DNA from: an uncultured Methanotrichaceae archaeon
GTDB lineage: Archaea > Halobacteriota > Methanosarcinia > Methanotrichales > Methanotrichaceae
Direction of reading: 5' to 3'
Length of the DNA: 28,047 bases
Assembly (NCBI GenBank): GCA_964556405.1
Contig: CAZKWM010000002.1
Coordinates: 1 to 28,047 of the forward strand
The notes under the pieces are model-generated. The model worked only from the letters and a program-made list of their open reading frames with translations, did not search any database and was not told where the DNA came from. How positions within the stretch are numbered: the first letter of the stretch is position 1; each line of letters begins with the position of its first letter. A program made the position numbers and the translations under genes. Below, one piece after another: positions 231 to 20,840 of the stretch.

Positions 231-554
231 ATGCCGAAACATAAAGCAGCGATGGTGACGTATCTACTGATTTTCAGTATCACCGTCATGGCTTTCGGGG
301 AGTCCGAGAGCCCTGGGGGAAAGGTCGTAGAGGTCAAATCGCAGAAAGGGCTAGCATCGTTAGCGGGTGAACTTAATTGGAGTGACAATAATACAATTTA
401 TGTAATGGTTCCAACCTCATCACAGGAGAATTCTACTTCGCCTGCAAATGATGAGATAGACCTCGAGGAGGGCCTGGCTCTCCACGCTCAGTTACCTTTC
501 GCTAGGTGGTATAATAGCGTTTTGAATGTCAGGCCGCCCGTATCTCAAGCCTGA
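231..554 (+). CDS. Small secreted hypothetical protein
   Basis: 107 aa. Basic N-terminus plus hydrophobic stretch (MPKHKAAMVTYLLIFSITVMAFG) is signal-peptide-like, and TATAAATA lies upstream near 181-190. The 3' end overlaps the cas4 remnant, so the C-terminus may be truncated. Confidence 0.55.
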   Translation: MPKHKAAMVTYLLIFSITVMAFGESESPGGKVVEVKSQKGLASLAGELNWSDNNTIYVMVPTSSQENSTSPANDEIDLEEGLALHAQLPFARWYNSVLNVRPPVSQA

Positions 555-971
555 ACTAAGCTACCTGCGTTGATAGTGATGGCATAACGTTCGTTAGTGC
601 CGAAGAGGTAGAGATAGCCCATCCTCACAGGCTCGCCCAGATAATCTTCTAGGAGCATGCAGTAAGTTGCTAACTGGATCTCATCGTTGTCATAATAAGA
701 TGAGCCTCGCTTGCGCTCTATCGGTACCAAGGTGGGTCCAGTACTCTTACTATTTTTAGATTCAAGGATATCTACCTTTCCATGCAGACCAAGGTTTTCA
801 GATCGTAGATAAAACTCGTGTATCCAGCCGTCTCTTCTAGACTGGTTTTGGTGCCTAAGTAGTCCATCCTTGTGGTAGGCATTCATTTCTACTGTATCAA
901 AATAAGAACGATAGTAATATCTACGCGGGCAATAGAAATATTGATATCGATAGTAAAGGCCGGGCTTCCAA
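545..971 (-). pseudogene. cas4: Orphan Cas4 (RecB-like nuclease, type I-D-like), broken at both ends
   Basis: QYFYCPRRYYY (943-911) is in frame upstream of the ORF-track ATG. Motifs LGLHGKVDILE, PIERKRG and DEIQLATYCMLLE are present. The C-terminal CxxC...C cluster is absent, and the plausible TTG start (971, LEARPLLSIS) is out of frame. Confidence 0.85.
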
Positions 972-4866: not shown

Positions 4867-5485
4867 GGCTGAAAAGATCCTGGGCCTTGGGGACGGGGCC
4901 GAGTTCAGGCCTCCTGCCAAGAGAGGCGACATCTTCAAAGCAGCCGAGGATGGAGCCGAGTTGATCTGCCTCATAGACGGGTTCTTCTTCCAGGACTGCT
5001 CCGTGGCCCACAAGGAGATTCTGTATGCCTTGGAGCATGGGGTAAAGGTAATTGGGGCCTCTAGCATGGGCGCTCTGAGGGCTTCGGAGATGGATGTCTA
5101 CGGCATGGAGGGCGCGGGGGAGATTTATCAGGCTTATAAAAATGGAGCGCTTGAGTCGGATGACGAGGTGGCATTAACCTTTGATCCCTACACCTTTACG
5201 CCTCAGTCCGAGCCCCTGGTGAACGTGAGGCATAGCCTTACGCTGGCAATAAAGCAGGGAGTTTTAAACCAGGAATCGGCAGAGGTCATACTGAGGGCGG
5301 CTCAATCCCTTTACTTCCCAGATAGGATCTACGACAGGATATTGAAGGCCGCCGGGACAAACGGGGTCTCCTCAGAGGCCATCGATGGGTTCAAATTGTT
5401 TCTAAAGTCTGGCGAAGGGGATCTTAAGGGTAAGGATGCCAGAAAGGCGCTAAAAAGGTCTCGGGAGATACTGGAGAATGGCTGA
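4811..5485 (+). CDS. tfuA: TfuA-like protein, YcaO partner
   Basis: VIFLGPSL, PPAKRGDI, IDGFFFQDCSVAHKEI, GASSMGALRASE and SDDEVA. Probable start is the ATG at 4811, which overlaps the ycaO 3' end by 56 nt. Confidence 0.93.
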   Translation: MPGKPRAVIFLGPSLQLDEAEKILGLGDGAEFRPPAKRGDIFKAAEDGAELICLIDGFFFQDCSVAHKEILYALEHGVKVIGASSMGALRASEMDVYGMEGAGEIYQAYKNGALESDDEVALTFDPYTFTPQSEPLVNVRHSLTLAIKQGVLNQESAEVILRAAQSLYFPDRIYDRILKAAGTNGVSSEAIDGFKLFLKSGEGDLKGKDARKALKRSREILENG

Positions 5486-5590
5486 AGTCCTGTATCCGAT
5501 TATGATATAGTCCTTTCGTACTTTTTCACACGGTAATTATTTCTAAGACTTTTCAAAGACATCTTTTGTTAGGGCATCAGTATGCTATCG

Positions 5591-5639
5591 ATAACTCTCT
5601 TAGTTATATCAAAAAAACTTATTACCAAGCCTGGTAATA
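5591..5639. promoter_or_regulatory. Promoter region of katE with two inverted repeats
   Basis: ATAACT-N5-AGTTAT (5591-5607) and TATTACCA-agcc-TGGTAATA (5620-5639) flank an A-run/CTTATTA BRE-TATA-like element. Confidence 0.4.
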
Positions 5640-6553
5640 TATCTTCTGAAGTTGTTGAGGTCAAACATACCGTAAAACCCATCCCTTAAGCCTTCTTGGC
5701 TCTGTTCAATCTTCCAATCAGATTTAGCAGTTTACATAACGAGTTTAGCTGTAATAGAGGTATCTGTAAATGAACGACCGCAATGAATCGAAGCCAGTAG
5801 ATAAGAACCGCAAGGACCAGCAGCTCGATTATTATACGGAGCACCCTGAGGAAACACAGCTTACCACCAATCAGGGCGTAAAGGTCAGCCGCACCGATGA
5901 TTCCCTCAAGGCCGGTCTAAGGGGCCCACCCCTCATGGAGAATTCTCATTTCAGGGAAACGATAACCCATTTCGACCATGAGAGAATTCCTGAGAGGGTG
6001 GTTCATGCCATGGGAACGGGTGCTTTTGGCTACTTCGAGTGCCTTAAAGCCCATGGGCGAATATACGGCAGCCAAGTTCCTTTAGGAGGTGGGAAAGAGG
6101 ACCCCAGTCTTTGTGCGGTTCTCCACGCCAGCTTCAGGGGATCGGCGGATACGGTTAGGGACGTGAGGGACTTTGCCACCAAGTTCTACACCGAGGAGCT
6201 CATATCTCCCAGGAAGATTGGAAGGCTGGTCCTGAACAAGACGCATGAAAACTTCTTCGCCGAGGTAGAACAGGTCGCCTTCTGTCCTGGAAACGTGGTG
6301 AAGGGCATAGACTTCACCAATGATCCCTTGCTTCAGGCCAGGCTCTTCTCCTACATAGACACCCAGATAGGCCGCCTTGGAGGCCCCAATTTCCACGAGA
6401 TACTCGTCAACAGGCCCATCGCCCCCGCCCACAACAACCAGAGGGACGCCATGCACAGGATGATGATCAACACCAGCAAGACCAGTTACTTCCCCAACTG
6501 CCTCGGCAGCAACTATCCGATGTCAACATCCTGGGATCAGGACGGCTACACCC

Positions 6554-6579
6554 ACTACATGGAGACACTACATGGAGAC
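6554..6579 (+). repeat. Perfect 13-bp tandem duplication ACTACATGGAGAC x2
   Basis: Read directly at 6554-6566 and 6567-6579; it frameshifts katE. Confidence 0.95.
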
Positions 6580-6733
6580 GGTGGAGGGAAGGAAGGTCCG
6601 GGAGAGGAGCGTAGAAGTTCAAGGATTTCTTCAGCCAGGCCAGCCTTTTCTTGAACAGCATGGCCGACTTCGAGAAGCTTCACATCATCAGAGCCTTCCG
6701 CTTCGAGGTAGGCAAGGTGGAGAGCAAGGAGGT

Positions 6734-6829
6734 CCGCCAGGTTTGCTGATGACGTGATAACTATCAACGCCGTCTCCAAGACCTACTCCATGACAGGATG
6801 GAGGCTCGGATATCTCGGAGCCAAGGGCG
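6734..6829 (+). repeat. Exact 96-bp inverted copy of 1885-1980 (aminotransferase segment) inside katE
   Basis: CCGCCAGGTTTGCTGATGACGTG...CTCGGAGCCAAGGGCG matches the reverse complement of 1885-1980 base for base. Confidence 0.95.
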
Positions 6830-7380
6830 TTGGTGCGGATCCGTCGACCCAGGGTGCCGATGCCAGCAAGTGCGGTAGATCTCCTGCCCTTAGATATGGC
6901 CAACACTCCTAAGAACACCCTCAAGAGCAGGATGATTGCCATTCTGGACGAGGATGGGTTCAATGGTACAGAGCTTACGAAGGTTACGATGGCTCTGGAG
7001 GATGTGGGTGGTCATGTCCAGGTTGTATCCACGCTTCTGGGAAGGATCAAAGGCGCCGACGGCCAGGAGTCAATGGTGGAAAAGAGCTCTCTTATCACTC
7101 CGTCCGTGGTCTTCGATGTCGTCTTCATCCCAGGTGGAAAGAAGAGCGTCGATGCTCTGAAGGCCAATGGGGATGCGATGCATTTCGTCAACGAGGCCTC
7201 AAGCACTGCAAGGCTATTGGAGCTGCCAGGGAGGGCATTGGTCTTCTGGAGGCTTCTGATATCAAGGGCTTGGTCTTTTCTGATCCTCAGGGAAAGGTAA
7301 AATCAGAGCTTGGTAGTAGTGACGGTTGGAACTGCTTCAGATGTTAATGCCTTCTTGGGAGCGTTTATCAAGGCGATAGC

Positions 7381-7673
7381 TCAGCATAGGTACTGGGGTA
7401 GGGAGAAGATGCTGCTGCCCCCTGATTGCCTTCCGATCTCTGTTTTCCAGTAGGCATTGTACCAGAACCTGTGCCCTTTCTCATTCTGCCTCTTGTCATG
7501 GGCGACCCATCCCCATCTTATAAGTGCCCTCAATGACTTGGCCAGCTTTCTTTCTGCTCTGACCCAATCTGTATAGGTTGAGATCTCCAATCCCATGGCT
7601 TGAGCTATCTCTTTCATGGATTTGGCTTCCGCTTGGCTATCAGGAAAAAAATTAAAAGAGATTCGTGATTCAT
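7381..7673 (-). pseudogene. Small winged-helix-like protein, probably frameshifted in an A7/T7 tract
   Basis: The ORF body (MKEIAQAMGL...LRALIRWGWV) is wHTH-like. An ATG at 7673 preceded by AGGTGA is 56 nt upstream; one extra base in the A7 run at 7645-7651 would join the frames. Confidence 0.55.
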
Positions 7674-7833
7674 CGGTTCACCTGTTATCCCTAGTTCTTA
7701 TTTGCGTGCCGTATATAAATTTCTGCCCTTGCCAAAAGGTTACAAGCTCTGCCGTAAGTCAACGGCGGGCATTGGGTCGCAGCACACCGAAAAGGCTACA
7801 TCACATCGGTTCAATTGGTTTTTTGGTTTGGAA

Positions 7834-8340
7834 ATGAAACTGAAGATAATGATCACTGGCCACAAGGTCCATGACGTAGGCTACAGATACCACCTGCTAG
7901 GCTTGGCTAGAAGCAGCAAGCTGAAAGGATTCGATGCCGAAAATCAGATAGCGGATGTAAAGCAACATGTCGAAGTCCTGGTGGAGGGCGGTGATGCGGC
8001 GATCAGAAAATTTGGGGATATCATCCAGATCTTCAGGACTCCAGGCGCTGAGATATCAGATATTTCCTTATCCTCCTATAAGAAATGGGCAATGAAGTTA
8101 GCGGAATACAGTGGCTGGTGTACCAATATCCAGCTAAATATGGGCATACAGGCTATCTTAGATAGCAATAAGATCATAGAGCGTGTGGATAGCTGCCAAG
8201 AAGATACCATCAAGGCAGTGCAGGAAAATTGGGCCTTCTTTGCCTTCTACTCAACCATGCTCATCCTTATGGCCTTTATTGCCTTTGCAATCATTTTTAC
8301 GGCTATAGGCACAGATTTTGACCTTGATTTCGCCAGATAG
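7834..8340 (+). CDS. Acylphosphatase-like domain protein with a C-terminal extension
   Basis: ITGHKVHDVGYR resembles the acylphosphatase V.GVGFR motif, with a downstream Asn (DAEN). The start was taken at ATG 7834. The C-terminus ends in a hydrophobic stretch. Confidence 0.7.
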   Translation: MKLKIMITGHKVHDVGYRYHLLGLARSSKLKGFDAENQIADVKQHVEVLVEGGDAAIRKFGDIIQIFRTPGAEISDISLSSYKKWAMKLAEYSGWCTNIQLNMGIQAILDSNKIIERVDSCQEDTIKAVQENWAFFAFYSTMLILMAFIAFAIIFTAIGTDFDLDFAR

Positions 8341-8404
8341 GAGGCTCGGAGGACCTCCCTGCCCCAGGGAAAAGGGCTTTAACCAGGCCATAGATCTCAT
8401 AATT

Positions 8405-9667
8405 ATGAGCTTTAGGGGTTTCCTGGAGGAGTTGAGATCTAAGGCCCTTTTAGAGGAGGTGCACAATGCCGCCTCTTCCAATTTAGAGGTAGCCCAGGTG
8501 TCCTGGAAGGCAAGGCCCATCCTTTTTCACGACGTAGATGGCCAAAAAAAGTGCTGCCTTAACATAATTGGCACCAGACACCTCCTGGCCATGGCTCTGG
8601 GGGTCGAGGCTACCAAACTGACCAGGTACCTGGCGGGCATCAGCTACCAGGGCCAGGTTGTAGAGGTGGAGTCATCGCCCGTCCAGGAGATAGAAGGGAT
8701 GCCAGATCTCTCAAGGCTTCCCATACTGACTTACTTCCAGGGCGACGGAGGGCCGTACATCACCGCGGGAGTGGTGACGACCAGCTACCAGGGCCACCTC
8801 AACGCCTGCGTTCACAGGCTCCTGGTCCTGGGAAAGGACAGGCTAGCGGCAAGGCTCGTGCCCGGCAGGCACACCCACCAGCTCTACCAGAAGGCCATGG
8901 AGGCGGGCGAGGAATTGCCCATAGCAATATCCATAGGCGTAGATCCTGCGATCCTCATAGCCGCCAGCACCAGGGTGCCTCCGGAGATGGAGTACCAGTA
9001 CGCAAGCGCCCTCAGAGGAGGTCCTGTGGAGGTCGTGCGTCTAGAGAACGACGTTCCAGTGCCACACGCGGAAGTCGTCCTGGAGGGGTACATCACCACC
9101 GAGAGATCTGATGAAGGCCCCTTCGTGGACATCACCGGCACCCGGGACCTGGTGAGAAAGGAGCCCGTCATCCGCCTGACCAAGATGATGACCAGAGAGG
9201 ACCCCATCTACCACGGCATAATGCCAGCGGGCGGAGAGCACAAGATGCTCATGGGAGTGCCCTACGAGCCCCTCATCTTCAGGGAGGCCTCCAAGGTAGC
9301 CAGGATCAAAGACGTCATATTAACTGATGGGGGGTGCAATTACTTCCATGCCGTGGTGCAGATAGAGAAAAAGTCCGAGGATGAGCCGAGAAAGGTCATA
9401 GAGGCTGCCATTAAAGCCCACGGATCTTTGAAGCACGTGCTGGTAGTGGATGAGGACATCGACATCTACGATCCCAGGGACCTGGAGTACGCAGTTGCCA
9501 CCAGGGTTAGAGCTGATGAAGATGCCATACTGTACCCCGGAGTCCGGGGTAGCACTCTTGATCCAAGGAGCGTTAACGGCATTACCACAAAGGTGGGATT
9601 GGACGCCACAGCCAAGCTCGACAAGCTCTGGAAGTTCCAGAGGGTGATGCCCGGAGGTAGGCCTTAA
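8405..9667 (+). CDS. ubiD: UbiD-family prFMN-dependent decarboxylase (likely the archaeal mevalonate-pathway anhydromevalonate-phosphate decarboxylase)
   Basis: DGGPYITAG, EGPFVDITG, HLKHV-like GSLKHVLVVDEDIDI and GSTLDP...TTKVGLDAT; about 420 aa from ATG 8405. The pathway assignment is inferred from knowledge of Methanosarcinales UbiD homologues. Confidence 0.88.
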   Translation: MSFRGFLEELRSKALLEEVHNAASSNLEVAQVSWKARPILFHDVDGQKKCCLNIIGTRHLLAMALGVEATKLTRYLAGISYQGQVVEVESSPVQEIEGMPDLSRLPILTYFQGDGGPYITAGVVTTSYQGHLNACVHRLLVLGKDRLAARLVPGRHTHQLYQKAMEAGEELPIAISIGVDPAILIAASTRVPPEMEYQYASALRGGPVEVVRLENDVPVPHAEVVLEGYITTERSDEGPFVDITGTRDLVRKEPVIRLTKMMTREDPIYHGIMPAGGEHKMLMGVPYEPLIFREASKVARIKDVILTDGGCNYFHAVVQIEKKSEDEPRKVIEAAIKAHGSLKHVLVVDEDIDIYDPRDLEYAVATRVRADEDAILYPGVRGSTLDPRSVNGITTKVGLDATAKLDKLWKFQRVMPGGRP

Positions 9668-9758
9668 GTTCAGAGTTCTATAAAGGAGGCCTGCGCTATT
9701 ACCCCCAGCTACACCTGCAAAATTATTTATGGCTTAAGCCTTTACATCATACCATTTT

Positions 9759-10101
9759 ATGCTGAAGATTCTACAAGGAAGGGAGCTCTGCACAGGCTCC
9801 TGAAATTCTGTCTGGTGGGCACCATGGGGGTCATAGTCAACATGGGTCTACTGTGGCTGCTGACCGATCTTGTAGGCATTCAATATCTGATATATCTTCA
9901 GCCTTGGCCATTGAGGCGTCGGTGGTGTCCAACTTCCTTATCAACGACTCCTGGACCATTAACGATGTGGAGACCTTGAGCGCATTTCCCATACGGCTTT
10001 TGAATATGAACGCCGCCTATGGCGCAGGTATAGGCATAGCCTGTGCCACCCTTCTCAACTTCGCCATGGCCAAGAACTTTGTCTGGAGGTCCTGCCCTTG
10101 A
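9759..10101 (+). pseudogene. gtrA: GtrA-family membrane protein, frameshifted
   Basis: Stitched frames read HRLLKFCLVGTMGVIVNMGLLWLLTD...SALAIEASVVSNFLINDSWT...NFAMAKNFVW. Frameshifts occur at CTCT (~9786) and ATATAT (~9890). Confidence 0.82.
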
Positions 10102-10290
10102 GATTGTCGGTGATCATCCCTGCCTAAAATGAACGCCCTAACCTGGATCGCCTGGTGAGGGAAATATCCTCAGCCCTGGAAGGACAATGCGATGATTACA
10201 ACACATTCTTCATCTACGAAGGCAATGATGGCGGAGAAAAGATTTTACAGAACATGGCTAAAGACCTGGGCTTCTGCTCTATCGCACGGC
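10098..10290 (+). pseudogene. GT2 (GtrB/Dol-P-sugar synthase-like) glycosyltransferase N-terminal remnant
   Basis: The TTG start overlaps the gtrA stop (TTGA), with GGAGG upstream. It reads LSVIIPA*NERPNL, with TAA (10125-10127) replacing Tyr in the IPAYNE motif, and is truncated after about 60 codons. Confidence 0.8.
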
Positions 10291-10309
10291 CGGTATTAAA
10301 GAGAGAGAA

Positions 10310-11251
10310 TATACCCTTATCCTTTGGGTGCTGAATCCCATAATGCACTACATATTCTTCATGTGGGGGCAGATAGATATAATCCCCTCATTCTTCACTG
10401 CCATGGCCACGTAATGTGCCAAAAAGGGCCTAGATGAGGGCCCTCTAAATCCTTCATTAAATTGAGCAAACTCCTTAGAATCTTCTTTGAATCAGAGCAA
10501 GGCCTTATCTCTGCTCGCCCTGGGCCTGGGCGACTGCTTCAAAAAATTCCAGCTTTTCCTCCTTCCCATCTTCGCTATGGGACTTGAGGGGAACCACATA
10601 TCAAATCTCATAAAGCTGATGGTAATAGGGTCCTTTCCTTTCGTCGCCATCATGCTCCTCTTTCTAGTCACTGAGGCCCTCCGCACGACGGCCCTCATTT
10701 CGAATCAGAACCAGAGAATTTTCTACCTTTCGTTGGATGTGGCACCAAACCACAGTGCTTATACCTTCCTCTTAGGCCTCTCTGCTTCCTACTTTTACGT
10801 GATGTACTTGAGCCAGGAGAGATCCTTCGATAGCATATGAAAGCATTCTTTAGCGGTTTTTGCCATCTTCTACTCCACTACGTTCTGGCATCCTCAGTGG
10901 TATCTCTGGTCCCTCCCCTTCCTGGTCCTTGCTATATCTAAAGATAGGAGGCTAATGGTCATCCATATGCTTATAGTAGCCTCCGTCTTCGCCTACATCC
11001 AGGAATGGGGTAATCCTCTTACTGCGGTTCTCTTTTACTCAGCCTCCCCCATCTTTAGAGATTTTCCATGGATCCTGGAGATAATACCCGGGCATACGAA
11101 AGTCCTGGGAGTAGTGGCCTACACCGGCTTCATAGTCTTATCCCTGGGCATGATCTTACCTGTATCTTTAAGGGAGACGAAGGCCTGGAGAACGATAAAA
11201 GATCCCTACCTGAGGAGAGGTCTTCGCTGGATAAAAGGCCGATATTTATAG
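10310..11251 (+). pseudogene. GT-C fold (GT87/DUF2029-like) polytopic glycosyltransferase, fragmented
   Basis: LWVLNPIMHYIFFMWGQIDIIPSFF and FWHPQWYLWSLPFL motifs plus many hydrophobic segments, interrupted by stops and frameshifts; the N-terminus is missing. Confidence 0.68.
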
Positions 11252-11484
11252 TACTGGAGCTGTCTGCACCCTTGAGGATATTCTTTGCTATGATGGCTGC
11301 ATCATTTCTTATCGACTGCAGCAGCTATTACAGCATAGAGCTGAGCGATATAAACAATCCTTTTTTACAGGCAGTAAGGGGAGATGAGATCTTCTTTGTC
11401 CTCTATGCCGTCATGCTGCTGAGCCTAATCTCCCTGGCAGTCGTAGTTCTTCTCTACGTCCTAAAGATGGAAGGAGGGTATTGA
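11227..11484 (+). CDS. Small membrane protein (start uncertain)
   Basis: Two hydrophobic segments lie in the 3' part of ORF 11068-11484. The 5' part overlaps the GT-C frame and is probably not coding. Confidence 0.4.
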   Translation: MDKRPIFIVLELSAPLRIFFAMMAASFLIDCSSYYSIELSDINNPFLQAVRGDEIFFVLYAVMLLSLISLAVVVLLYVLKMEGGY

Positions 11485-11563
11485 AATAATCTTTTACTTA
11501 AAGTTTTAATGCTAAAAAAACATAGGGTATAGGTGGAAAGCAGAAGGCGTAAGGTGGATCTTC

Positions 11564-12100
11564 GTGGCAAACGTACAGGATAATCGGTGTGCTGGTAACA
11601 TCAACAGCCTGGCCGACATCAGGATCTCCAGGAGGGATCTAGTAAGGCTGCACGATCACTTGAGCTACCTCCAGAACGGCTTAAAGGAGATGGGTACCGA
11701 TATCTCTGATATTCAGAAAAGGATTTATAAGCTCTCCAGGGACGCCGATAGATTGGGAACCCTCTTCGACTCCCTCTTCGGGGATCAGATAAGCTCAGTG
11801 ATAGGCGGGGGAACGATCATCTCTTCACCATGTCTCTCGGCCGAGGAGAAGCTTTTGGATGCCATGGACTCGGAGCTCATAACCCTCGGGCCGGACAGGC
11901 AAACCTGGAAGCAGATGCTCTCAACCATCGATATAATAAGGCGGGTAGAAGAGGAGTTTGGTGGGATTGCGCCTAGAGAGGAGGTTTTGGCCCAAACGGC
12001 CGAGATCCATATCAGTTCAGATAAGCTCGATCAGATTCTAAATACGCTCAAGAAATCCGGAGCCCTGGCTGAGTCCGAAGATGCCGTCAGGCTCATCTGA
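11564..12100 (+). CDS. Coiled-coil protein with an MCM-C-terminal-like winged-helix domain
   Basis: Intact 178 aa with a GTG start after AGGTGG. The N-terminus has a heptad pattern. The C-terminal IDIIRRVEEEFGGIAPREEVLAQ...SDKLDQILNTLKKSG...VRLI resembles archaeal MCM C-termini. Confidence 0.7.
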   Translation: MANVQDNRCAGNINSLADIRISRRDLVRLHDHLSYLQNGLKEMGTDISDIQKRIYKLSRDADRLGTLFDSLFGDQISSVIGGGTIISSPCLSAEEKLLDAMDSELITLGPDRQTWKQMLSTIDIIRRVEEEFGGIAPREEVLAQTAEIHISSDKLDQILNTLKKSGALAESEDAVRLI

Positions 12101-12110
12101 TTTTTTCTTT
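12101..12110 (+). terminator. Oligo-T archaeal terminator
   Basis: TTTTTTCTTT directly follows the stop at 12100. Confidence 0.5.
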
Positions 12111-12259
12111 ATCCTCTGGCGCTGAATGGGCGAAACAATAAACGCCAATTATAAAGGTACAATCGCGCCAAGAAGCTCCCTTAATATCGGTGATTGATCA
12201 ATTCATCCCATGGAATCCATTTATGCTTTTGTGACTCTGTGGTTTTCCTTTGTATTCCA

Positions 12260-12281
12260 ATATATATATATATATATATAT
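12260..12281. repeat. (AT)11 microsatellite
   Basis: Perfect alternating A/T run, read directly. Confidence 0.95.
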
Positions 12282-12291
12282 TCTTGAACTC

Positions 12292-12466
12292 TCAGATCTC
12301 CAGGTACATGCGCACGCTGTATAGAGTGGCCAGCACCAGCACCAGGCCAGCCCCCAGAGCCAAAAGCTGGAATACCAGATCGCTCAACCCGATCGCCTCC
12401 CGGATAACATATCTTTTAAATATACCTTTTAAAGGAATCGCCTGGTAACTCCAGCTTTAGCATCAT
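12292..12466 (-). pseudogene. Small single-TM membrane protein frameshifted by a 13-bp duplication
   Basis: MMLKLELPGDSFKRY joins VIREAIGLSDLVFQLLALGAGLVLVLATLYSVRMYLEI* if the imperfect repeat at 12408-12420/12421-12433 is collapsed. Confidence 0.45.
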
Positions 12467-13030
12467 CAGCTTTGACACTATAATTCCTGATCACATCACA
12501 TGGTCCCAGGACCTGGGCCGACCGAACCTCGGTGATGATGGCCATCATCCTCACCTTGCCCTCAAAGTCTTCCCTGATCCTGGGCCCCCCATATCCCATT
12601 GGCTTTCTCATCCAGCTCCTGGGTCAGTGCCCCGGCCAGGGCAGCGGCGCCCTTGAGGGTGGGGTCAAGCCCTCCGATTATGTGGAGAAGGCATCCCTTA
12701 GTGCCCCCTGTAGTCGATGTCCAGAAGAGGATTTTGCTTGATAGCCGAGCGAACGATCTCCTCAGGAGGCTCATACAAACAGCCCTCCCCGACTATCATA
12801 AAGGAGGGGCCTCCCGAGCTCATGATGGCCCTCACATAGGCGTAGTCCAGGTTGATGATGGAGGGCACGGTTATGGTCTCCATAACCCCTTTTATGATCC
12901 CGGTTATGAGCTGATCCACCACCGAGAAGGCGTGCTCCACGGGGAGGTTCGGCACCAGATCCAAGAGCCTGTTGTTATCTATGACGAGGCGGGTGTCGGC
13001 CTCGGCCATTGCCAGGTGCCGGCAGCCGGT
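12429..13030 (-). pseudogene. ftsZ: FtsZ (FtsZ2-type) C-terminal half; 5' half lost, frameshifted
   Basis: EADT.LVIDNNRLLDLVPNLP, ITVPSIINLDYAYVRAIM, NPLLDIDYRG, GCLLHIIGG and IWGARIREDFEGKVRMMAIIT are spread across three frames. The GGGTG signature region is missing. Confidence 0.9.
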
Positions 13031-13034
13031 GTTG

Positions 13035-13070
13035 ATTCCAATCCCCAATGGGTTTTCGATAACTGTTGGC
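13035..13070 (+). CRISPR. Single putative type I-D-like CRISPR repeat (no array)
   Basis: ATTCCAATCCCCAATGGGTTTTCGATAACTGTTGGC resembles GTTTCAATCCC-N4-GGGTTTTC type I-D repeats of methanogens and haloarchaea (recalled from memory). No second copy was found in the window. Confidence 0.45.
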
Positions 13071-13120
13071 GTCAACTACCCCGCCCTAAAGGCCGGGGAC
13101 CCCGGCGCTGACTGTTAAGT
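13071..13120. mobile_element. IS200/IS605-family end (omega-RNA/HEARO-type terminal hairpin), no transposase or nuclease ORF
   Basis: GTCAACTACCCCGCCCTAAAGGCCGGGG has a TAAA-loop hairpin, and GTCAAC can pair imperfectly with GCTGAC at 13107-13112. On the minus strand it reads CTTTAGGGCGGGGTAGTTGAC, the typical IS605/IS1341 terminus. Confidence 0.7.
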
Positions 13121-13213
13121 TGATTAAAGAATGTTTGGAATTGGAAGAGTACGAAATGTTGTATGCTTGCGCAATTCTGAAGCATCATGATGCAAAAATG
13201 AAGAGGAAGTCTG

Positions 13214-13712
13214 ATGAGTGACGAAAATTTCGACCCAATGGAAGAGAGCCTTCGAAAGATATCGAGGGCTCCAAGTCTTAGCCCAGAACAATCGAACGCC
13301 ATAGATTTACTAATTCTCGGAAAAACTGATCGTGAAGTTTCCGAATTAGTTGGGTTTTGTCTGTAAACAGTCACAAAATAGCACAAAAATCTGTTTTTCC
13401 CCCCCCCACGCCGAATTGAACCTGAAAAGAGATGATTTATGGGACGATGCAAAGATCAGATTAGAGACTTTAGCGAATGAAGCAGTGATCGTCCTATCCC
13501 AAGGCCTTCACAGCGAAGACCAACAAATAGCTGTCCTCACTGCTACCAATATCCTTAAATGTGTCGGCCTCTACGATTCAGGAAATGGGATCTATGCCAA
13601 TCGTCCCAAGACTCCTGAAGAGGTGGTCTGTAGTCAAATGGTAGATTTGGGCTCTAATTGTTATATAGGAGTTAGGCCTGACGCATTCTCCGATCTTCAG
13701 CTAGAGAAATAG
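13214..13712 (+). pseudogene. Phage/integrated-element-type HTH protein (phBC6A51-like), disrupted
   Basis: LSPEQSNAIDLLILGKTDREVSELVG..TVTK*HKN..AELNLKRDDLWDDAKIRL. It has stops at 13364 and 13379 and a frameshift at a C9 run (13399-13407). Confidence 0.6.
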
Positions 13713-13968
13713 ACAGAGGTGGCGGGGCAAGATTTAGCAACAAAATGAATATTTTTTGAGTACGAAAAAGCTGTGATGGAGCAATAAAAGGGGCTTAAGC
13801 AGTACAAAAAGAAAATTAAAGGATTAAAATCTAGCGACATAGAGCCCGTGCCTATAGTCATCGAGCCCGTGTAGTGCGTTTTAATTAGACATCGTTCTTG
13901 GGATCAGAGAGGAGTAGTTAGCCACTGGCAGAGAACGAGTCTTTAAATTGATTATAGAGGCTTGAATT

Positions 13969-14430
13969 ATGTTAGGAGATAAACTAGATGCTGCATACGA
14001 GATAGGCCATATGATAAAAGTTGTTGAGCTCGGCCACTTCTTTATGGGCGTTGAGTTGACTGATAACGGTGGCGGCGGAACCCGCTACGATGCCCAACAC
14101 ATTGGTGACCCCATACCGGTCTTAGATGAGATCCGGATAATCCTCGCTGGATACGTCGGTCAGTGCCATGGTCAGGGGACCGCCCCGACCATGGAGGGGT
14201 TCGAAAAGGACCCTAACTGCTTTGAGGATAAGGAGCTATCTCTATGAGTTCCTGGATGAATACTATGATCAGTTCGTGCCTTACATGGCCTCTAAACTCG
14301 CGAAGTACAGCAAGGATCTGGACGGTCCCTTTGAGCTCCTATTTGACGTATTCACAGGCGCGTTGATTGAGCGCCGGAAGTTCTACGGTGATCCTTTAAC
14401 TCATGATTTTTTTACGCAGCCTGGCAGGGC
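13969..14430 (+). pseudogene. Small M41/FtsH-protease-like remnant
   Basis: AAYEIGH is an AYHExGH motif lacking the first His. GGGGT and IILAGYVG segments follow, and after a frameshift near 14240 the sequence LIERRKFYGD resembles the M41 tail. TATA and AGAGG lie upstream of the ATG. Confidence 0.45.
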
Positions 14431-14488
14431 CCGGCCTTTGGGCGCAAAGGAGAAATCCTCATCTTTTCAAGGTGCTAAGGGGATAGAA

Positions 14489-15199
14489 TTGAACCTTGAA
14501 GAAATATCTGACGCCTTAAAGACGTCCCTTCATCTCAGGGATAGCCCTGTGGGCGTAGCTCTGTTCAAGCGCGAGGAAGATATACCCAAAGATATTGGGA
14601 TCGCTGAGAGGCCTTTTAACTACTGCCAGATGATACAGGAGGCGAGGATCAAGGGCGAGAGCTTCCTGGCCCACGCCGACTACCACAAGTGTAAGGGCGG
14701 GGCCTCTGGCCTGGGCCTCCTGGAGTGCCCTGAGAACATATCCTCGGGCAACCTATACTTCGAGAAGCTTCACAAGTGCGCGACCAGGGAGGCCGGCGCT
14801 CGGATCGCAGGCAACATGCCCAGGATTCAGGCAGGGTCCACCGTAGCCACCTATGTGGCTCCCTTGAACAAGATGGTGAAAAATCCCGATGTAGTAATAA
14901 TAGTTGGGACGCCCCTCACCGCTAGGAGGGTCGTACAGGCCGAGATGTACACCCGCGGCGGCAGGGCGAACATAAGTACTGCAGGCATCCAGTCCTTCTG
15001 CGTTGACGCTACAGCCGTTCCTTACATCAAAGGCGAGGTCAATGTGTCCATGGGCTGCGATGGATCTGCCAGGAACGCCGATCTGGAGGGCGAGAGCGTT
15101 GTAATCGGCATTCCCTTCGGCATTCTCCAGGAGATCACCCCTATTCTCAAGGAACATTACGAGGGCTGGGACGCCTTCATGAGGACCAAGCCCACCTAA
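14489..15199 (+). CDS. DUF169-family protein
   Basis: LRDSPVGV, YCQMIQEAR, CKGGASGLGL, PDVVIIVGTP, QSFCVDATAVP and SMGCDGSAR. Probable TTG start at 14489 within the longer ORF 14168-15199. Confidence 0.82.
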   Translation: MNLEEISDALKTSLHLRDSPVGVALFKREEDIPKDIGIAERPFNYCQMIQEARIKGESFLAHADYHKCKGGASGLGLLECPENISSGNLYFEKLHKCATREAGARIAGNMPRIQAGSTVATYVAPLNKMVKNPDVVIIVGTPLTARRVVQAEMYTRGGRANISTAGIQSFCVDATAVPYIKGEVNVSMGCDGSARNADLEGESVVIGIPFGILQEITPILKEHYEGWDAFMRTKPT

Positions 15200-15299
15200 A
15201 GACCGAATGTAATAATAGCGCCTTTTTACGGCACCCTTCCAACAAATTTTTTGCTTTAAACCGGAATAAATCAGCGGTATAAATCAATCGGGAGGTTTT

Positions 15300-15767
15300 G
15301 TGTTCGATAGGATTTTAGTGGCCACAGATGGCTCTGAGCACAGCGAGGGAGCAGCCAAGTTTGCTGTAGATCTAGCCAGGCTCCCCACAGGAAAAGTTAC
15401 GGCTCTCTACGTTGCCGATACTGCCAAGTACTTCACCTCCGCAGGAGAGGTAACTTTCAATATAGCCGATGAGATCATAGGCCGCGTCAGAAGCGCGACC
15501 CTGGAAGAAGGCGATAAGGCCACACGTCGAGTAGAAGAGATTGGTAAGGCCGCTGGGGTGGAGGTGGAGAGAAAGGTGGTAGAAGGAAACCCCGCCAAGG
15601 AGATCCTTAAAGCTGCGGAGGATATGCACGCAGAGGTCATAGCCATTGGAAGCATAGGCCGCACGGGTATAGAGGAGTTTCTCCTGGGAAGCGTGGCCGA
15701 GAAGGTGGTCAGGAACTCCAAGGTACCTGTCCTGGTGGTGCGCAAGGACGGGTCTCAAGGATCTTAA
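15300..15767 (+). CDS. uspA: Universal stress protein
   Basis: ILVATDGSEHS...IAIGSIGRTGIEEFLLGSVAEKVVRNSKVPVLVV; GGAGG RBS and TATAAA upstream. Confidence 0.95.
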   Translation: MFDRILVATDGSEHSEGAAKFAVDLARLPTGKVTALYVADTAKYFTSAGEVTFNIADEIIGRVRSATLEEGDKATRRVEEIGKAAGVEVERKVVEGNPAKEILKAAEDMHAEVIAIGSIGRTGIEEFLLGSVAEKVVRNSKVPVLVVRKDGSQGS

Positions 15768-16432
15768 GGCCGCTTCATACGCCATTTAAGGAGGGCGCCG
15801 TCGCCCAGCCTCTCCAAGGCCACCAGATCAAGCTCAGGAAAGTTGAAGGCAAATCCCAAGCCGTCTACTAGAGTTGGCGCACTCTCTCCGCCAATGATCA
15901 TAGGACCAATGTATATGTAAATCTCATCTAAGAGCCCAGCCTCCATTAGGGACCAGTTCAGCGTCGCCCCGCCCTCGACCATCAGCCTTCTTACGCCCCT
16001 AGAGCGAAGATTTGCCATGAGCGCTCCTAAATCCACCCTGGAGTCGCCAAAGACCACGATATCTGCCTTTCCCCCCAGCTGCTCCAGACGGTCTTCGGGT
16101 GCAGCCTTGGAGACCGCCAGGATGCATCCCTCTCCTAGGACCTTGGCATCAGGATGGGTCCGGGCCAAGCTGTCCGCCACCACCCGAATGGGATTCTCGG
16201 CCTTTCCTGCCCTGATCCTCGCTCTCCTCAGATCCGCGGACTTTACCCTGAGACCTGGGTCGTCCGCCAGGACCGTTCCCACGCCCACCATGATGGCATC
16301 GCTGGAGGCCCGGAGTTCTGCAACCCTGGAAAGATCCTCTCTTTCCGAGATGCTGATCTGATGGCGCCGAAAGGAGCTTATCTTGCCATCGGCACTCATG
16401 GCACTGTTGATGAAGATAAAGGGCCTCTCCAT
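15764..16432 (-). CDS. arfC: 2,5-diamino-6-ribosylamino-4(3H)-pyrimidinone 5'-phosphate reductase (RibD C-terminal domain, archaeal)
   Basis: FINSAMSADGKIS, DAIMVGVGTVLADDPGL, LMVEGGATLNWSL and GGESAPTLVDG. Confidence 0.93.
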   Translation of the reverse strand: MERPFIFINSAMSADGKISSFRRHQISISEREDLSRVAELRASSDAIMVGVGTVLADDPGLRVKSADLRRARIRAGKAENPIRVVADSLARTHPDAKVLGEGCILAVSKAAPEDRLEQLGGKADIVVFGDSRVDLGALMANLRSRGVRRLMVEGGATLNWSLMEAGLLDEIYIYIGPMIIGGESAPTLVDGLGFAFNFPELDLVALERLGDGALLKWRMKRP

Positions 16433-16486
16433 GGCTGTCCCAAGATCGAGAGAGGCTAAATAGCTTCTCGCCCAATTTTAAGGCAG

Positions 16487-17542
16487 ATGGTCAGATCTGA
16501 GGAGATGGTTCTGTCGGGGACTGTGATCTACGGCGATGACTTCGACGTTGTGCAGGGCTACGTCTGCCTGAAGGACGGCATCATAAAGGAGGTGGGAGAA
16601 GGCAGGGTGGATTGTGACCTGGAAGGCATCATCTGCCCCAGGTTCGTCAATGCCCATACCCACCTTGGAGACTCTGTTGCCAAGGACCCGCCCTTCATGG
16701 ATCTCCGTAACCTGGTGGGGCCAGAAGGCTTCAAGCACCGCATCCTGGCAATGACCGCCAGAAGTCTCCTGGTGGAGGGGATGAGAAGGTCCGTCCTGGA
16801 CATGATTTCCACTGGGACCTTTGCCGTCCTGGACTTTCGCGAGGGGGGGCCAGAGGGAACTGAGATGCTCCTGGAGGCTATTCAAGGCCTGGACGTAGTC
16901 TGCTCCATCATGGGAAGGCCTGACCAGGGATCAACAGAGATAGACGACAGGTGCTTCGGCCTGGGCATGAGCAGCACCAGGGATATGCCCTTTGATCTGG
17001 CCAGAGAATGTGTGAGCTGCGCCAGGAGCCTGGGCAAGGGGTTTGCAGTCCACGCAGGAGAGGCGAGCAGGGACGACATAGAGGGCGCCCTGAGCCTCTG
17101 TCCCGATTTTCTGGTCCACATGAACAAGGCTGATAGATCCGACCTGGAGAAGGTGGCCAGAAGGGAAATTCCAGTGGTGGTCTGCCCCAGGTCCAACCTC
17201 TTCACAGGGGTGGGCCTGCCCGATGTCGGAACCATGGCGGACCTGGGAATAACCGTGGCCATAGGGACGGATAACGTCATGCTCAATTCGGTAAACATCC
17301 TTGAGGAGATGGCTCTGATATCCAAGTACCTCCTCCACGACGATAGACAGGTATTTAAGATGTGTACGCTAAATGGTGCAAAGATTGCTGGTATCGATAA
17401 AAAGGCCGGCTCGATACTGGAGGGGAAGGAGGGCAGAGTGATGGTCATCGACGGATCGTCGAACAACATGTGGGGATCCACGGATCCCCTGGCCAGCATC
17501 GTCAGGAGGGCCAGGCCCTCTGATGTCCTGGCCGTGTTCTAG
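16487..17542 (+). CDS. Metal-dependent amidohydrolase (deaminase-like)
   Basis: FVNAHTHLGDS (HxH), VHAGE, LVHM, CPRSN and IGTDN metal-ligand motifs. Confidence 0.88.
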   Translation: MVRSEEMVLSGTVIYGDDFDVVQGYVCLKDGIIKEVGEGRVDCDLEGIICPRFVNAHTHLGDSVAKDPPFMDLRNLVGPEGFKHRILAMTARSLLVEGMRRSVLDMISTGTFAVLDFREGGPEGTEMLLEAIQGLDVVCSIMGRPDQGSTEIDDRCFGLGMSSTRDMPFDLARECVSCARSLGKGFAVHAGEASRDDIEGALSLCPDFLVHMNKADRSDLEKVARREIPVVVCPRSNLFTGVGLPDVGTMADLGITVAIGTDNVMLNSVNILEEMALISKYLLHDDRQVFKMCTLNGAKIAGIDKKAGSILEGKEGRVMVIDGSSNNMWGSTDPLASIVRRARPSDVLAVF

Positions 17543-17553
17543 GTGTTAGAGAG

Positions 17554-17991
17554 ATGTTCGAGAAGATCATGGTGGCAACGGACGGATCAGAGCACAGCGA
17601 GAGGGCAGCAAAGATAGGGATTGAGATCGCCAAGCTTTCAGGTGGCACCGTGACCGCGATCTATGTGGCCGATGTGAGAAGGAATAGCCACCTACCCGAT
17701 GCTTTGCTCTTAGTGAGCATCAGAGAGCTTCTGATCAAGGAGGGCAAGGAAGCTGTAAGTGTCGTTGAGAAGGCCGCCAAAGAGGCAGGGGTTCCTGTGA
17801 AGAAAGCCGTGCTGGAGGGAAATCCAGGAGAGGAGATCGCCGGTTTTGCAGTCAAGAACGACGTGAGCCTCATTGTCATGGGCAGCGTGGGCAGGACTGG
17901 GCTAGACAAGTTCCTCCTAGGATCCGTGGCTGAGAAGGTGGTCAGAAACTCCAAGGTGCCGGTCCTCACTGTGCCCAGGGAGGCAACTTGA
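17554..17991 (+). CDS. uspA: Universal stress protein (paralogue of 15300-15767)
   Basis: IMVATDGSEHS...GSVGRTGLDKFLLGSVAEKVVRNSKVPVL. Confidence 0.95.
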   Translation: MFEKIMVATDGSEHSERAAKIGIEIAKLSGGTVTAIYVADVRRNSHLPDALLLVSIRELLIKEGKEAVSVVEKAAKEAGVPVKKAVLEGNPGEEIAGFAVKNDVSLIVMGSVGRTGLDKFLLGSVAEKVVRNSKVPVLTVPREAT

Positions 17992-18848
17992 TACAAGTAA
18001 AAGATATGATGGTCAGGGATGTGGCTCACGTGGCAGTCCCGGGCAACAGGACTGAGGTCCTCAAGGTCCTTCAAAAGAGGCAGGTTTCAGGATTACCCGT
18101 AGTCAAGGCCGGCGAGGTGGTGGGGATGATTACCAGGTCAGATCTCCTCAGAAACCCCGAGGAGGATCAGACGGCACTGATCATGACCCGAAATCCGGCC
18201 ACCATCACCTCTGAGAGCACCATGGTCGACGCCGCCAAGGCCATCCTCCAACACAGGGTAAGAAGGCTGCCGGTGATCGAGGGGAGAAAGCTTATAGGCA
18301 TCATATCCATCGCCGATGTGGTCAAGGTAGCGGTGGGTCTTGGCATCGAAGAGAAGATAAGCAAGTACATAGAGCGCAACGCCGTAGCCCTCTGGGCAGA
18401 CACACCCCTTCCCGTAGCCGGGGCCATCATGGAGCTGGCTCAAGCCGAGGCCTGCCCAGTCCTGGGATCAGACTTAAGGATGGTAGGCATAATCTCCGAC
18501 CGGGACCTCATTAACGCCAGCATCATCACGGATTCCACTGCAAAGACCAGCTTGGAATCGGCCGCTGAGGACGACGACTACCAGTGGGATAGATTTAGAC
18601 AGCCTGACAACTTCTACTACGGCGTTTCCAAGATAGAGTTGAAGAACGTTCTGGTAAAAGATGCCATGGTCCCCGCCATGACCGCCCGGAGAGATAATAC
18701 TGTCAGCGAAAGCGCCGAGGTCATGAGGAAAAATAGGATAGATCAGCTTCCTGTGATCACCCCTGGCCAGAAGTTGGTGGGGATGTTCAGGGATAGGGAC
18801 GTGACCAAGGCACTGGTGGATTATTATTCTCATGGTCAGAAGGGCTAA
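17988..18848 (+). CDS. Tandem CBS-domain protein
   Basis: Four CBS-like repeats (VKDMM, SGLPVV..VVGMITRSDL, RRLPVI..IGIISIADV, DQLPVI..LVGM). The TTG start overlaps the USP stop. Confidence 0.92.
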   Translation: MIQVKDMMVRDVAHVAVPGNRTEVLKVLQKRQVSGLPVVKAGEVVGMITRSDLLRNPEEDQTALIMTRNPATITSESTMVDAAKAILQHRVRRLPVIEGRKLIGIISIADVVKVAVGLGIEEKISKYIERNAVALWADTPLPVAGAIMELAQAEACPVLGSDLRMVGIISDRDLINASIITDSTAKTSLESAAEDDDYQWDRFRQPDNFYYGVSKIELKNVLVKDAMVPAMTARRDNTVSESAEVMRKNRIDQLPVITPGQKLVGMFRDRDVTKALVDYYSHGQKG

Positions 18849-19186
18849 AAGGCGGTTTTAAAATCTCATTTTTAGAGATATCATCGGCTCCAAGAATAAC
18901 GATCTATTATCCCAAGGGCACTGTAGGGATCGGATATCTGTTCGAGGATCCTACTCCAATAGTCGATGGCTGATAGCTGGTGCCCGGAAGATCCTGAAAG
19001 CCCCCTGGGATAGCTCCAGATCCTATGGTGCTACACGGACTGGGCACTGCCATAAGGACTGCTGTAAGAATACAGGGATTGGCCAGGGCCGACGTCGATC
19101 ATCAAAGGTAGGCAGACATCCTTGAGATGCTTGGTTCTTGAAGCACAAGATATGCAGTTTATATTATTTTATTCTAAGATCAACAT

Positions 19187-19959
19187 ATGATAAAGCATTT
19201 AACCCTCATTCCAGCCACAGGCAAACGCCTTATTGCCAAAGCAATAGCCGTCCATCCTACTATCCAGGCGGCTTTAAAATCAGGCACTTTAGCCATCATC
19301 GCCGGCACAACCAATGGTTACGTAGCCGAGGAGATTCTGAAAAGCATCGGCCAATCAGAGGGTTTTTCCAAAAAGCGATTCTTCCGCGGCGTCGTCATCT
19401 CGCCTCAGCTGCCGGTAACCGAATCCTGGCGCCTTAAGGAGGAGAGCGGATTTCCAGGCGATGCGGTAATAGCAAGTGGCACCTGGCAGAGAGGAAAGAC
19501 CATCTTCGACGTGGTCGGTGACTTGAAAGAGGGTGATGTCATCCTCACGGGAGCCAATGACCTCGACCTGACCAATCGCCAGGCAGCCGTTCTCTATAGG
19601 CCATCCAAAAGGATGCACTGTAGGTGCATCCCTACAGGCCGTGGTGGGACGGAGGGTAAGGATGATCCACCCTGTCGGCCTGGAGACGCGGGTCAACTGC
19701 AATCTGAGGGAGCTGGCAACGAGGATGAATTTACCAGGGATCCATGGGTCAAGGCTTCTGCCCGTGCCCGGAGAAGTCTTCACTGAGATCGATGCCATCT
19801 CCCTAATGACCAGGCGCCAAGGCCGAACTTATTGCGGGCGGCGGAGTTGGCTGAGCTGAGGGCAGTATCTGGCTGGCCCTGATGGGTAACGATGATCAGA
19901 TGGCTAGGGCTGAAGAGCTGATGAAAGCTATATCCTCGGAGCCCATGTTTGAAATTTAA
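19187..19959 (+). pseudogene. Conserved hypothetical protein (CoA-transferase/RpiA-like alpha/beta family), disrupted
   Basis: Stitched frames read [59 protein letters not shown]. Frameshifts occur near 19593 and 19812, with an in-frame TGA near 19855. Confidence 0.7.
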
Positions 19960-19961
19960 GG

Positions 19962-20840
19962 TCAAAGAACTTCCTTGACCACGTCATAGGTGAAGACCGG
20001 CCCATCCTGGCAGGCATGGTAAGGCCCTATGCAGCAGTGCTCGCACTTTCCCACGCCACACTTCATGTGCCTCTCCATGGAGACGTATATATCCGAGTGG
20101 TCAAAGCCCCTGGCCATGAGCTTAGCAGCCACGGCGTTGATCATCACCGAAGGGCCGCAGATGGCCGCCGAGCCCGCCAGCAGGTTGAACTTATCTATGA
20201 GGGCCGGGACCATGCCCACATTTCCTTTCCAGCCCTCATCGCCGATATCCACGGTCACGCTCACATCGATCCCCGCCTGCTGCCAGCCTTTATACTCCTG
20301 CATAAAATAGAGGTCCTGCCTGGTCCTGGCGCCATAGGCCACGGCCACCTTCCCGAAGGAATTCCTTCTGTCCACGATGTAGTTGATGAGGGACCTCAAG
20401 GTGGCAAAGCCCGATCCTCCGCCGGCGATGAGGATATCCTTCTTCATACGATCCAGGGGAAAGCCGTTTCCGCAAGGGCCACGGATGCCCAGGACATCCC
20501 CGATCCTGGCATCCATGATGCCGTTAGTGATCCTTCCAGCCCGCCTTATACAGAGCTGAAGGGAACCCCTGGTGGGAGTCGAGGTTATGGATATGGGGCA
20601 CTCGCCCAAGCCAAAGACGGAGACCATGACGAATTGGCCGGGCTTGTAGCTGAAATCAACGCCTGAAGGAAGGACCAGCGATATAAGGTAGGTGTTGGGG
20701 GACTCCACGTCGATATCCACGATCTCCGCCTGCAAGGGCAGGTAGCTGCCTTGGCTGCTCCGTCCACTGTATTTGCTGCAGCCGCTGTAACTGTTATTGC
20801 TTTTACTTATGTTGCTACTGTTGCTACCGCGATCGCTCAT
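19962..20840 (-). CDS. FAD/NAD(P)-binding [2Fe-2S] subunit (AsrB / sulfhydrogenase-gamma / FlxA-like)
   Basis: PGQFVMV, GECPISI, RGPCGNGF, GGGSG, AICGP and ERHMKCGVGKCEHC..ACQDGPVF. Probable ATG at 20840 overlaps the upstream stop. Confidence 0.9.
   Translation of the reverse strand: MSDRGSNSSNISKSNNSYSGCSKYSGRSSQGSYLPLQAEIVDIDVESPNTYLISLVLPSGVDFSYKPGQFVMVSVFGLGECPISITSTPTRGSLQLCIRRAGRITNGIMDARIGDVLGIRGPCGNGFPLDRMKKDILIAGGGSGFATLRSLINYIVDRRNSFGKVAVAYGARTRQDLYFMQEYKGWQQAGIDVSVTVDIGDEGWKGNVGMVPALIDKFNLLAGSAAICGPSVMINAVAAKLMARGFDHSDIYVSMERHMKCGVGKCEHCCIGPYHACQDGPVFTYDVVKEVL

Follow-up and report, generated by a model that had tools for sequence, protein, structure and literature searches.

The question raised by this locus is how a single CRISPR-like repeat came to lie directly against the end of a transposon, and whether the two together ever acted on the CRISPR-Cas system of their host. 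The window was a 28,047-nt stretch of DNA, bases 1-28047 of contig C2. The host genome (G000) is a 2.3-Mb metagenome-assembled genome (MAG) of 303 contigs and is 88% complete. The region is a patchwork containing broken genes, with catalase, DJ-1, gtrA-like, Cas4 and ftsZ fragments. No tRNA or att site was found in the window by ARAGORN, and no Rfam family was found in it at gathering thresholds. The stretch was also present in public runs from wetland and peat metagenomes, and no RNA run was listed among those carrying it. Contigs from three independent studies among these runs bridged the junction of repeat and transposon (12977-13402, 13046-13271 and 12884-13084), so the junction is not an assembly artefact.

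The lone repeat and the host CRISPR-Cas system

The repeat-like unit at 13035-13070 was classed as a degenerate lone copy of the 37-nt type I-D CRISPR repeat of the host family, with its crRNA sense on the minus strand. This assignment was based on similarity, shuffles and a family profile. The host repeat starts with GTTTCAATCCCTATTGGGTTTTC and is found at three contig ends in G000, with a further, orphan copy in C85. Over its first 23 nt the unit was identical to the host repeat at 19 positions and to an orphan repeat in the sister genome G001 at 20. Compared to the C85 orphan repeat, 29 of 37 nt were identical with three indels. Alignment scores against the host repeat and orphan copies were 14-17, while shuffles had a mean of about 3 (sd 1.5), and 0-1 of 5,000-20,000 shuffles reached the score of the unit (0 of 20,000 in the larger set). 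When the genome was searched with nhmmer, using a profile built from 11 family repeats, only the four true repeats ranked above the unit (12.9 bits; 4.6 million positions in the 2.3-Mb genome). The next match scored 9.0 bits. As a blind genome-wide search the E value was 0.22, which is not significant. A 36-nt repeat-like unit had been proposed here by the first-pass annotation, and its likeness to the host repeat (19/23 in the first part) was above chance. From its sequence the unit was taken to be a degenerate CRISPR-derived repeat, with a residual chance of coincidence.

The limits of the unit agree with two independent boundaries, the end of the ftsZ homology at 13036 (compared to G001) and the start of the transposon end at 13071. 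The last 8-10 nt, on the side of the transposon tip, aligned poorly, so the term flush is accurate only to within a few bases. In crRNA sense the unit ends in ATTGGAATC while intact repeats end in ATTGAAAC, indicating a mutated 3' handle. No second repeat was found near the unit; the sole other weak match to the family profile in C2 was at about 17.6 kb (6.6 bits). A k-mer scan found no array, and 13035-13070 is a single copy. No cas genes adjoin it and the nearest relic is the Cas4 fragment at 545-886. Two further candidates were rejected. The region 13071-13107 was considered as a spacer preceding a further repeat, and repeat-like sequence was absent beyond it. The DNA from 13124 onward was considered as a CRISPR leader, and comparison of 13124-13263 to the leaders of metagenome contig L068 and G001:C23 gave a p value of 0.59. 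The unit resembles orphan or terminal degenerate type I-D repeats in its sequence family, its length of 36-37 nt and its decay, which is concentrated at the ends as in the trailer-end repeats of relatives. It differs from orphan type I-D repeats in having no array, leader or adjacent cas genes and in being fused to a dead ftsZ and a transposon scar.

In relatives belonging to the same family, this type of repeat forms regular arrays of 10-60 copies with a period of about 73-74 nt. Those with arrays keep a conserved leader, which borders the repeat on its ...GCAAC side, so that the crRNA sense is GTTGC...GAAAC. Cas10d/Csc3 lies within a few kb of the arrays in G012, G016 and G046, placing the repeat family in type I-D, the type to which the repeat had first been assigned. 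No Cas10d match was found in the genus, G000 and G001 included. Neither cas1 nor cas2 was found in the G000 MAG by tblastn. Absences of cas genes and arrays in G000 are to be read as not found and not as proven, due to the incompleteness and fragmentation of the MAG. G001 keeps a decayed cas1/cas2 module consisting of cas2, a cas1 fragment and one repeat. A metagenome contig near-identical to G000:C257 encodes cas1 and cas2 with a leader and a single repeat, and adjoins uvrA. The Cas4-like fragment of the window (545-886, minus strand; Pfam PF01930, 5e-6) adjoins eIF5A and is 12 kb from the repeat unit. It resembles the region beside cas1/cas2 in G001:C23 and is a relic of the decayed, lost CRISPR-Cas locus, located at the left edge of the window.

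An intact repeat with the same leader start forms the end of three G000 contigs, C55 (11885-11935), C224 (1-53) and C257 (2706-2759). Their flanks are housekeeping genes, namely Tex, PspAB/M48 peptidase and UvrA. In metagenome contigs L067 and L068 the repeat and leader start continue into the leader, cas2 and cas1. A module of cas1, cas2, leader and single repeat is therefore joined to at least 2-3 different flanks in the population, suggesting collapsed arrays and/or rearrangements at the repeat. The orphan repeats at G000:C85:6129-6165 and G001:C23:1044-1080 are both located downstream of the same orthologous zinc-ribbon gene, in opposite orientations. In G001:C23, cas2, a cas1 fragment of 92 aa and an ORF of 395 aa come after the repeat, and the C-terminal part of this ORF resembles the Cas4-like fragment of the window. 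The cas genes are gone from the C85 locus.

The ftsZ pseudogene and the breakpoint

The repeat unit is bordered on its other side by the 3' part of an ftsZ-paralog pseudogene (12380-13036, minus strand), the translation of which aligned to the FtsZ paralogs of relatives. The pseudogene is frameshifted and cut off at about codon 36. G001 (C67) has a contiguous ftsZ pseudogene which is uninterrupted at the repeat and transposon site. The DNA of G001 is 87% identical to 11000-13007 of the window and 80% identical to 12992-13036, and the homology stops at 13036. The missing 5' part was located at G000:C82:1348-1492, where it is fused to unrelated DNA through about 20 nt of filler. No source of this filler was found in the genome. 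There is a possible overlap of 3-4 nt (ATCA) between the two ftsZ break ends.

The minus-strand frame is open through the 36-mer and runs into FtsZ-like sequence, and the 36-mer was at first a plausible part of the ftsZ coding region. This was rejected. The true 5' continuation is present in G001 and G000:C82, and the 34 nt beyond the homology are unlike that 5' part (p of about 0.4 compared to shuffles). The treatment of the 36-mer as sequence belonging neither to ftsZ nor to the interior of the transposon was upheld.

An internal deletion of 293 nt was present in the pseudogene between two short repeats coding for EADT (window 12992-13006). It is polymorphic, as the undeleted form was found in public contigs from two studies. 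One of these is still joined to the repeat, making the junction of repeat and ftsZ older than the deletion.

The pseudogene is the edge of a 4.7-kb block at 8317-13036 which runs from UbiD to the ftsZ 3' part and has different neighbors in G000 and G001. In G001 (C52 and C67) the block lies between a left flank of the C82 type and the ftsZ 5' part. In G000:C82 (1-3222) these two old flanks are joined directly and the block itself is on C2. The comparison gives an arrangement of the cut-out-and-moved type, and the junction on C82 contains short filler. The block was also considered as a giant spacer between two repeats and this was rejected, since the left junction has no repeat.

The single-hairpin transposon unit

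The repeat unit is followed by a closed 53-nt mini-unit at 13071-13123, made up of a right-end (RE) tip, a single hairpin and a left-end (LE) tip, without tnpB. All three parts were assigned to the minus strand. The RE tip of a TnpB-type IS200/IS605 element (13071-13078) reads GTCAACTA on the plus strand and TAGTTGAC in tnpB sense, and is the end that abuts the guide in the omega RNA. The subterminal hairpin (13079-13098) has the form CCCCGCCC / TAAA / GGCCGGGG and is of the kind found at both the LE and the RE of the full element. The LE tip (13099-13123) ends in ...GCTGACTGTTAAGTTGA on the plus strand. The site had been described as a transposon end; what is present is not a broken end but this closed unit with both tips.

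When the genome was searched with 13035-13120, only the second half recurred. The motif GTCAACTACCCC...GGGG was found at at least 10 other sites in the genome. It always started with GTCAAC, its left flanks were unrelated and it was often located at contig ends. A fixed start, unrelated DNA to the left and placement at contig ends are as expected of a multi-copy element. The sequence 13071-13098 was 89-93% identical to element ends in at least 10 contigs, and the hairpin unit aligned with copies in C94, C155, C124, C53, C21, C252 and C91. In C53 the TnpB zinc-ribbon domain (PF07282) runs into the RE and the frame stops at the TAG in ...GGGG TAG TTGAC. C215 is arranged alike, and a TTCAC variant was present in C140, C100 and C116. 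The tnpB stop codon TAG is within the RE tip in C53, C215 and G024, and tnpB is encoded on the strand opposite to the plus-strand reading of the hairpin.

A full copy of 1.22 kb was found in the relative G024:C3 (L061 1501-2721), encoding a 383-aa protein with PF07282 and PF01385. Its RE consists of GTCAACTA plus the hairpin and its LE of the hairpin plus ...GTGTTAAGATGAA. The two hairpins are direct repeats with 19 of 20 positions identical. One is followed by TAGTTGAC at the RE, and the other is preceded by a conserved 27-nt LE tip. The LE tip of the window matched that of the G024 element at about 20 of 25 nt by manual count, and G001:C50 and G000:C21 share the inner boundary of the LE tip. 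In these two contigs the LE-type relics of this IS (L052 from about 2720 onward for G001:C50; from about 2860 for G000:C21) give way to short sequence resembling tandem repeats.

Beyond 13126 the sequence resembled none of the IS copies. No tnpB or tnpA coding sequence is present between the tips, which are separated by one hairpin only, and the neighboring ORFs had no Pfam match. There is no TnpB or IscB ORF in 13000-14400, in agreement with the earlier observation that no nuclease ORF remains at the site. Elsewhere in G000 there were 21 TnpB zinc-ribbon matches, many of them fragments. IscB (PF14239) was not found in the MAG, and an IscB-type element was rejected on this basis. The interior of the multi-copy IS was sought by extension from the contig ends and was not found in the MAG. 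Judged by its ends, the unit 13071-13123 is a remnant of a TnpB-only IS200/IS605 (IS1341-like) element.

The LE flank of the window unit has TTTAA at its end. None of six other LE flanks shares this ending, and only a loose TA-rich pattern emerged among them. A consensus TAM was sought from these flanks and the pattern was not clear enough for one to be stated.

A second single-hairpin unit was found at G000:C94:11-64. It is 54 nt long with the same order of RE tip, hairpin and LE tip, and belongs to a different subfamily of the same IS. Either elements of this kind have collapsed to a single hairpin more than once or units of this build can move. It is conceivable, though improbable, that the 53-54-nt units of the window and C94 are the smallest mobile IS200/IS605 derivatives yet seen; no evidence was found that the 53-nt unit can move. 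Derivatives without protein and with conserved ends (PATEs) have been described (Meers et al., bioRxiv 10.1101/2023.03.14.532601). The elements described here share with IS1341-like TnpB-only elements and PATEs the subterminal hairpins, a tnpB that runs into the RE in full copies, the guide-adjacent RE tip and the multi-copy occurrence. Unlike the PATEs described so far, which keep separate LE and RE hairpins, the window unit has 53 nt and one hairpin serving both tips.

The hairpin had also been identified as an omega-RNA-type, guide-adjacent end of an IS200/IS605 element, and this identification was confirmed. At a permissive threshold the HEARO model (RF02033) gave a partial match on the plus strand starting at exactly 13071, with 24 bits and an E value of 0.003-0.009. 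This is below the gathering score of 83. The alignment was good for the P1 stem and first hairpin only, where the consensus GUCAacuaCCCC...GGGG was followed near base-for-base; the RE tip 13071-13078 corresponds to consensus positions 1-8. C53 gave the same weak match, and full copies have a tnpB ending in the same GGGG-TAG context. The similarity to the HEARO/IscB omega RNA covers the first approximately 30 positions on the plus strand (GUCAACUA, the CCCC...GGGG hairpin and P1 closure). The other 150 or so positions are missing, the genome yielded no IscB, and in full copies TnpB is encoded on the opposite strand. According to Meers et al. (bioRxiv 10.1101/2023.03.14.532601), the scaffold of the IscB omega RNA comes from the RE of the transposon, outside of which the guide lies, and the RE is where the TnpB omega RNA stops. 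This accounts for the resemblance between the reverse complement of a TnpB-element RE and the 5' end of HEARO. One RE can therefore be read as the 3' end of a TnpB omega RNA and, on the opposite strand, as a HEARO-like 5' end, and the HEARO likeness reflects a shared type of RE and not an IscB locus. In this archaeal family the first approximately 30 HEARO consensus positions are near-identical to the reverse complement of the TnpB-only REs. Low-threshold HEARO matches can accordingly mark TnpB right ends on the wrong strand, which is a caveat for annotation.

Functional TnpB scaffolds are around 100 nt or more in length. About 28 nt of the omega RNA scaffold remains in the window, too little for an omega RNA directed at arrays to be produced now. 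The sequence at the guide position matched the host repeat at 10 of 20 positions, ungapped, as read from the sequences. The fold of 13030-13130 was no stabler than that of shuffles (z -1.1). For the proposed repeat-derived guide aimed at the host arrays, the geometry was found to be right, while a guide working at present is contradicted by the short scaffold and the 10/20 match.

Origin of the site and rival explanations

The crRNA-sense strand of the repeat is the minus strand, which is also the sense strand of tnpB. The former order was thus tnpB, RE and repeat in the same direction, with the RE tip in contact with the repeat at its leader-proximal end, give or take a few bases that align poorly. 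An OMEGA element inserted into a repeat had been proposed. The repeat is instead nearly full-length, and the unit directly abuts it at the leader-proximal end. The identity and exact limits of the three pieces, the break in synteny and the existence of the junction are established. Each piece is of a type already described: the repeat is an orphan of type I-D, and the hairpin unit is what is left of a TnpB element of the IS200/IS605 family after collapse. The site as a whole is probably a composite decay scar without present function. In this reading a mutated lone type I-D repeat at a rearrangement breakpoint, which cuts a dead ftsZ paralog, lies next to a collapsed TnpB-only IS200/IS605 (IS1341-like) element.

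A TnpB-only element probably once sat with its RE flush against the leader-proximal end of the repeat. Its omega RNA would then have taken the opening 16-20 nt of the repeat as its guide. The element would later have collapsed through recombination or replication slippage, with its two near-identical 20-nt subterminal hairpins as the partners, removing tnpB and most of the omega RNA scaffold and leaving the 53-nt sequence of RE tip, hairpin and LE tip. Such an interior deletion between hairpins would be the simplest origin of the mini-unit, although the unit could have arrived as a mini-element instead. The former full element is a reconstruction, as no version of this site was found to keep an intact tnpB. 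The LE-side flank has no leader or spacer-repeat pattern, and for this reason the repeat may have stood alone as an orphan before the arrival of the element.

The origin of the repeat itself could be different. The CRISPR likeness of 13037-13070 may be coincidental, with the 34 nt representing filler or a templated patch from microhomology-mediated break repair. The genome-wide nhmmer E value of only 0.22 is in keeping with this, as are the weak alignment of the 3' third of the unit and the similar stretch of sourceless filler (about 20 nt) on the C82 side of the same break. However, the segment is delimited independently by the end of the ftsZ homology and the transposon tip and spans the full repeat in register. 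It was equalled by 0-1 of 5,000-20,000 shuffles and is the top non-array match in 4.6 million positions. Coincidence is considered unlikely, with a small share of the probability left to it. A slightly smaller share is given to a repeat brought in by the DNA on the LE side of the mini-unit, as a solitary repeat of a virus or plasmid and not a relic of a host array, with the IS inserted inside this DNA. That DNA (13124-14388) is an AT-richer patch of broken small ORFs which occurs once in G000 and of which one 135-nt piece only was found in G001. It encodes a 120-aa ORF with homologs in only 5 of 104 family genomes. The patch is probably foreign DNA, and if the 53-nt unit is removed it is directly continuous with the repeat. 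No repeat-like sequence was found within about 1.5 kb of the homologs of the 120-aa ORF in the five other genomes, however, and the patch had no Pfam or PHROG match that would support a viral origin. No integrase or att site was seen. A virus-borne solitary repeat was rejected on the ORF homologs without a nearby repeat and the lack of a PHROG match.

Both remaining alternatives give the site an activity, beyond the composite scar that is preferred here. The RE tip abuts the repeat and a full element would draw its guide from it, so an active OMEGA element might have attacked the host arrays and driven the loss of the type I-D system. In keeping with this, Cas10d was not found in the genus and the cas1-cas2 locus of the metagenome contig near-identical to C257 has a single repeat. 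Yet G001 equally has no Cas10d match and has decayed cas1/cas2, with ftsZ uninterrupted at the site. As neither genome has a detectable I-D effector and the junction of IS and repeat is present only in G000, a causal role is without evidence, and the suggestion that the element promoted the loss of the I-D system was not sustained. TnpB cleavage needs a TAM 5' of the target, and 5' of each target in the arrays this position would fall in the variable spacer ends. The sequence in the guide position no longer matches the repeat well, as described above. When 185,579 species genomes were pattern-scanned, such an RE flush to this repeat type did not recur, and the one match was an unrelated one in Cytophagales. 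An attack of this kind is very improbable. Even less probability is given to a unit that still works as a small RNA, through a read-through transcript processed at the repeat into a crRNA-like or regulatory product. There is an AT-rich stretch upstream on the minus strand and most of the conserved repeat core is kept. Against this, the fold is not stabilized relative to shuffles, Cas10d was not found in the genus, the 3' handle of the repeat is mutated and the flanking "spacer" is a dead gene.

The lone repeat is taken as CRISPR-derived, and the hairpin is a genuine OMEGA-type end. Since the locus is dead, destruction of the I-D system cannot be attributed to it. The site is a clean example of how an IS200/IS605 element can collapse to a single-hairpin unit through its own LE and RE hairpins. 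By one proposed route, type V systems arise when TnpB inserts beside a pre-existing CRISPR array (Altae-Tran et al. 2023, PMC10691335). The former arrangement at this site resembles that route in having the repeat downstream of tnpB in the same direction, as in Cas12 and its arrays. It differs in being a dead remnant without nuclease or array, and with no sign that TnpB ever used the repeat. As a fossil of TnpB beside a repeat it serves to illustrate one of the steps considered in the origin of type V, without adding a mechanism. It is a doubtful but conceivable reading that the site is the fossil of a TnpB transposon which landed flush upstream of a pre-existing type I-D repeat in the same direction, with an omega RNA that once ran into the repeat. 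If this were true, the raw event of one proposed route to type V would have been preserved in an archaeal methanogen.
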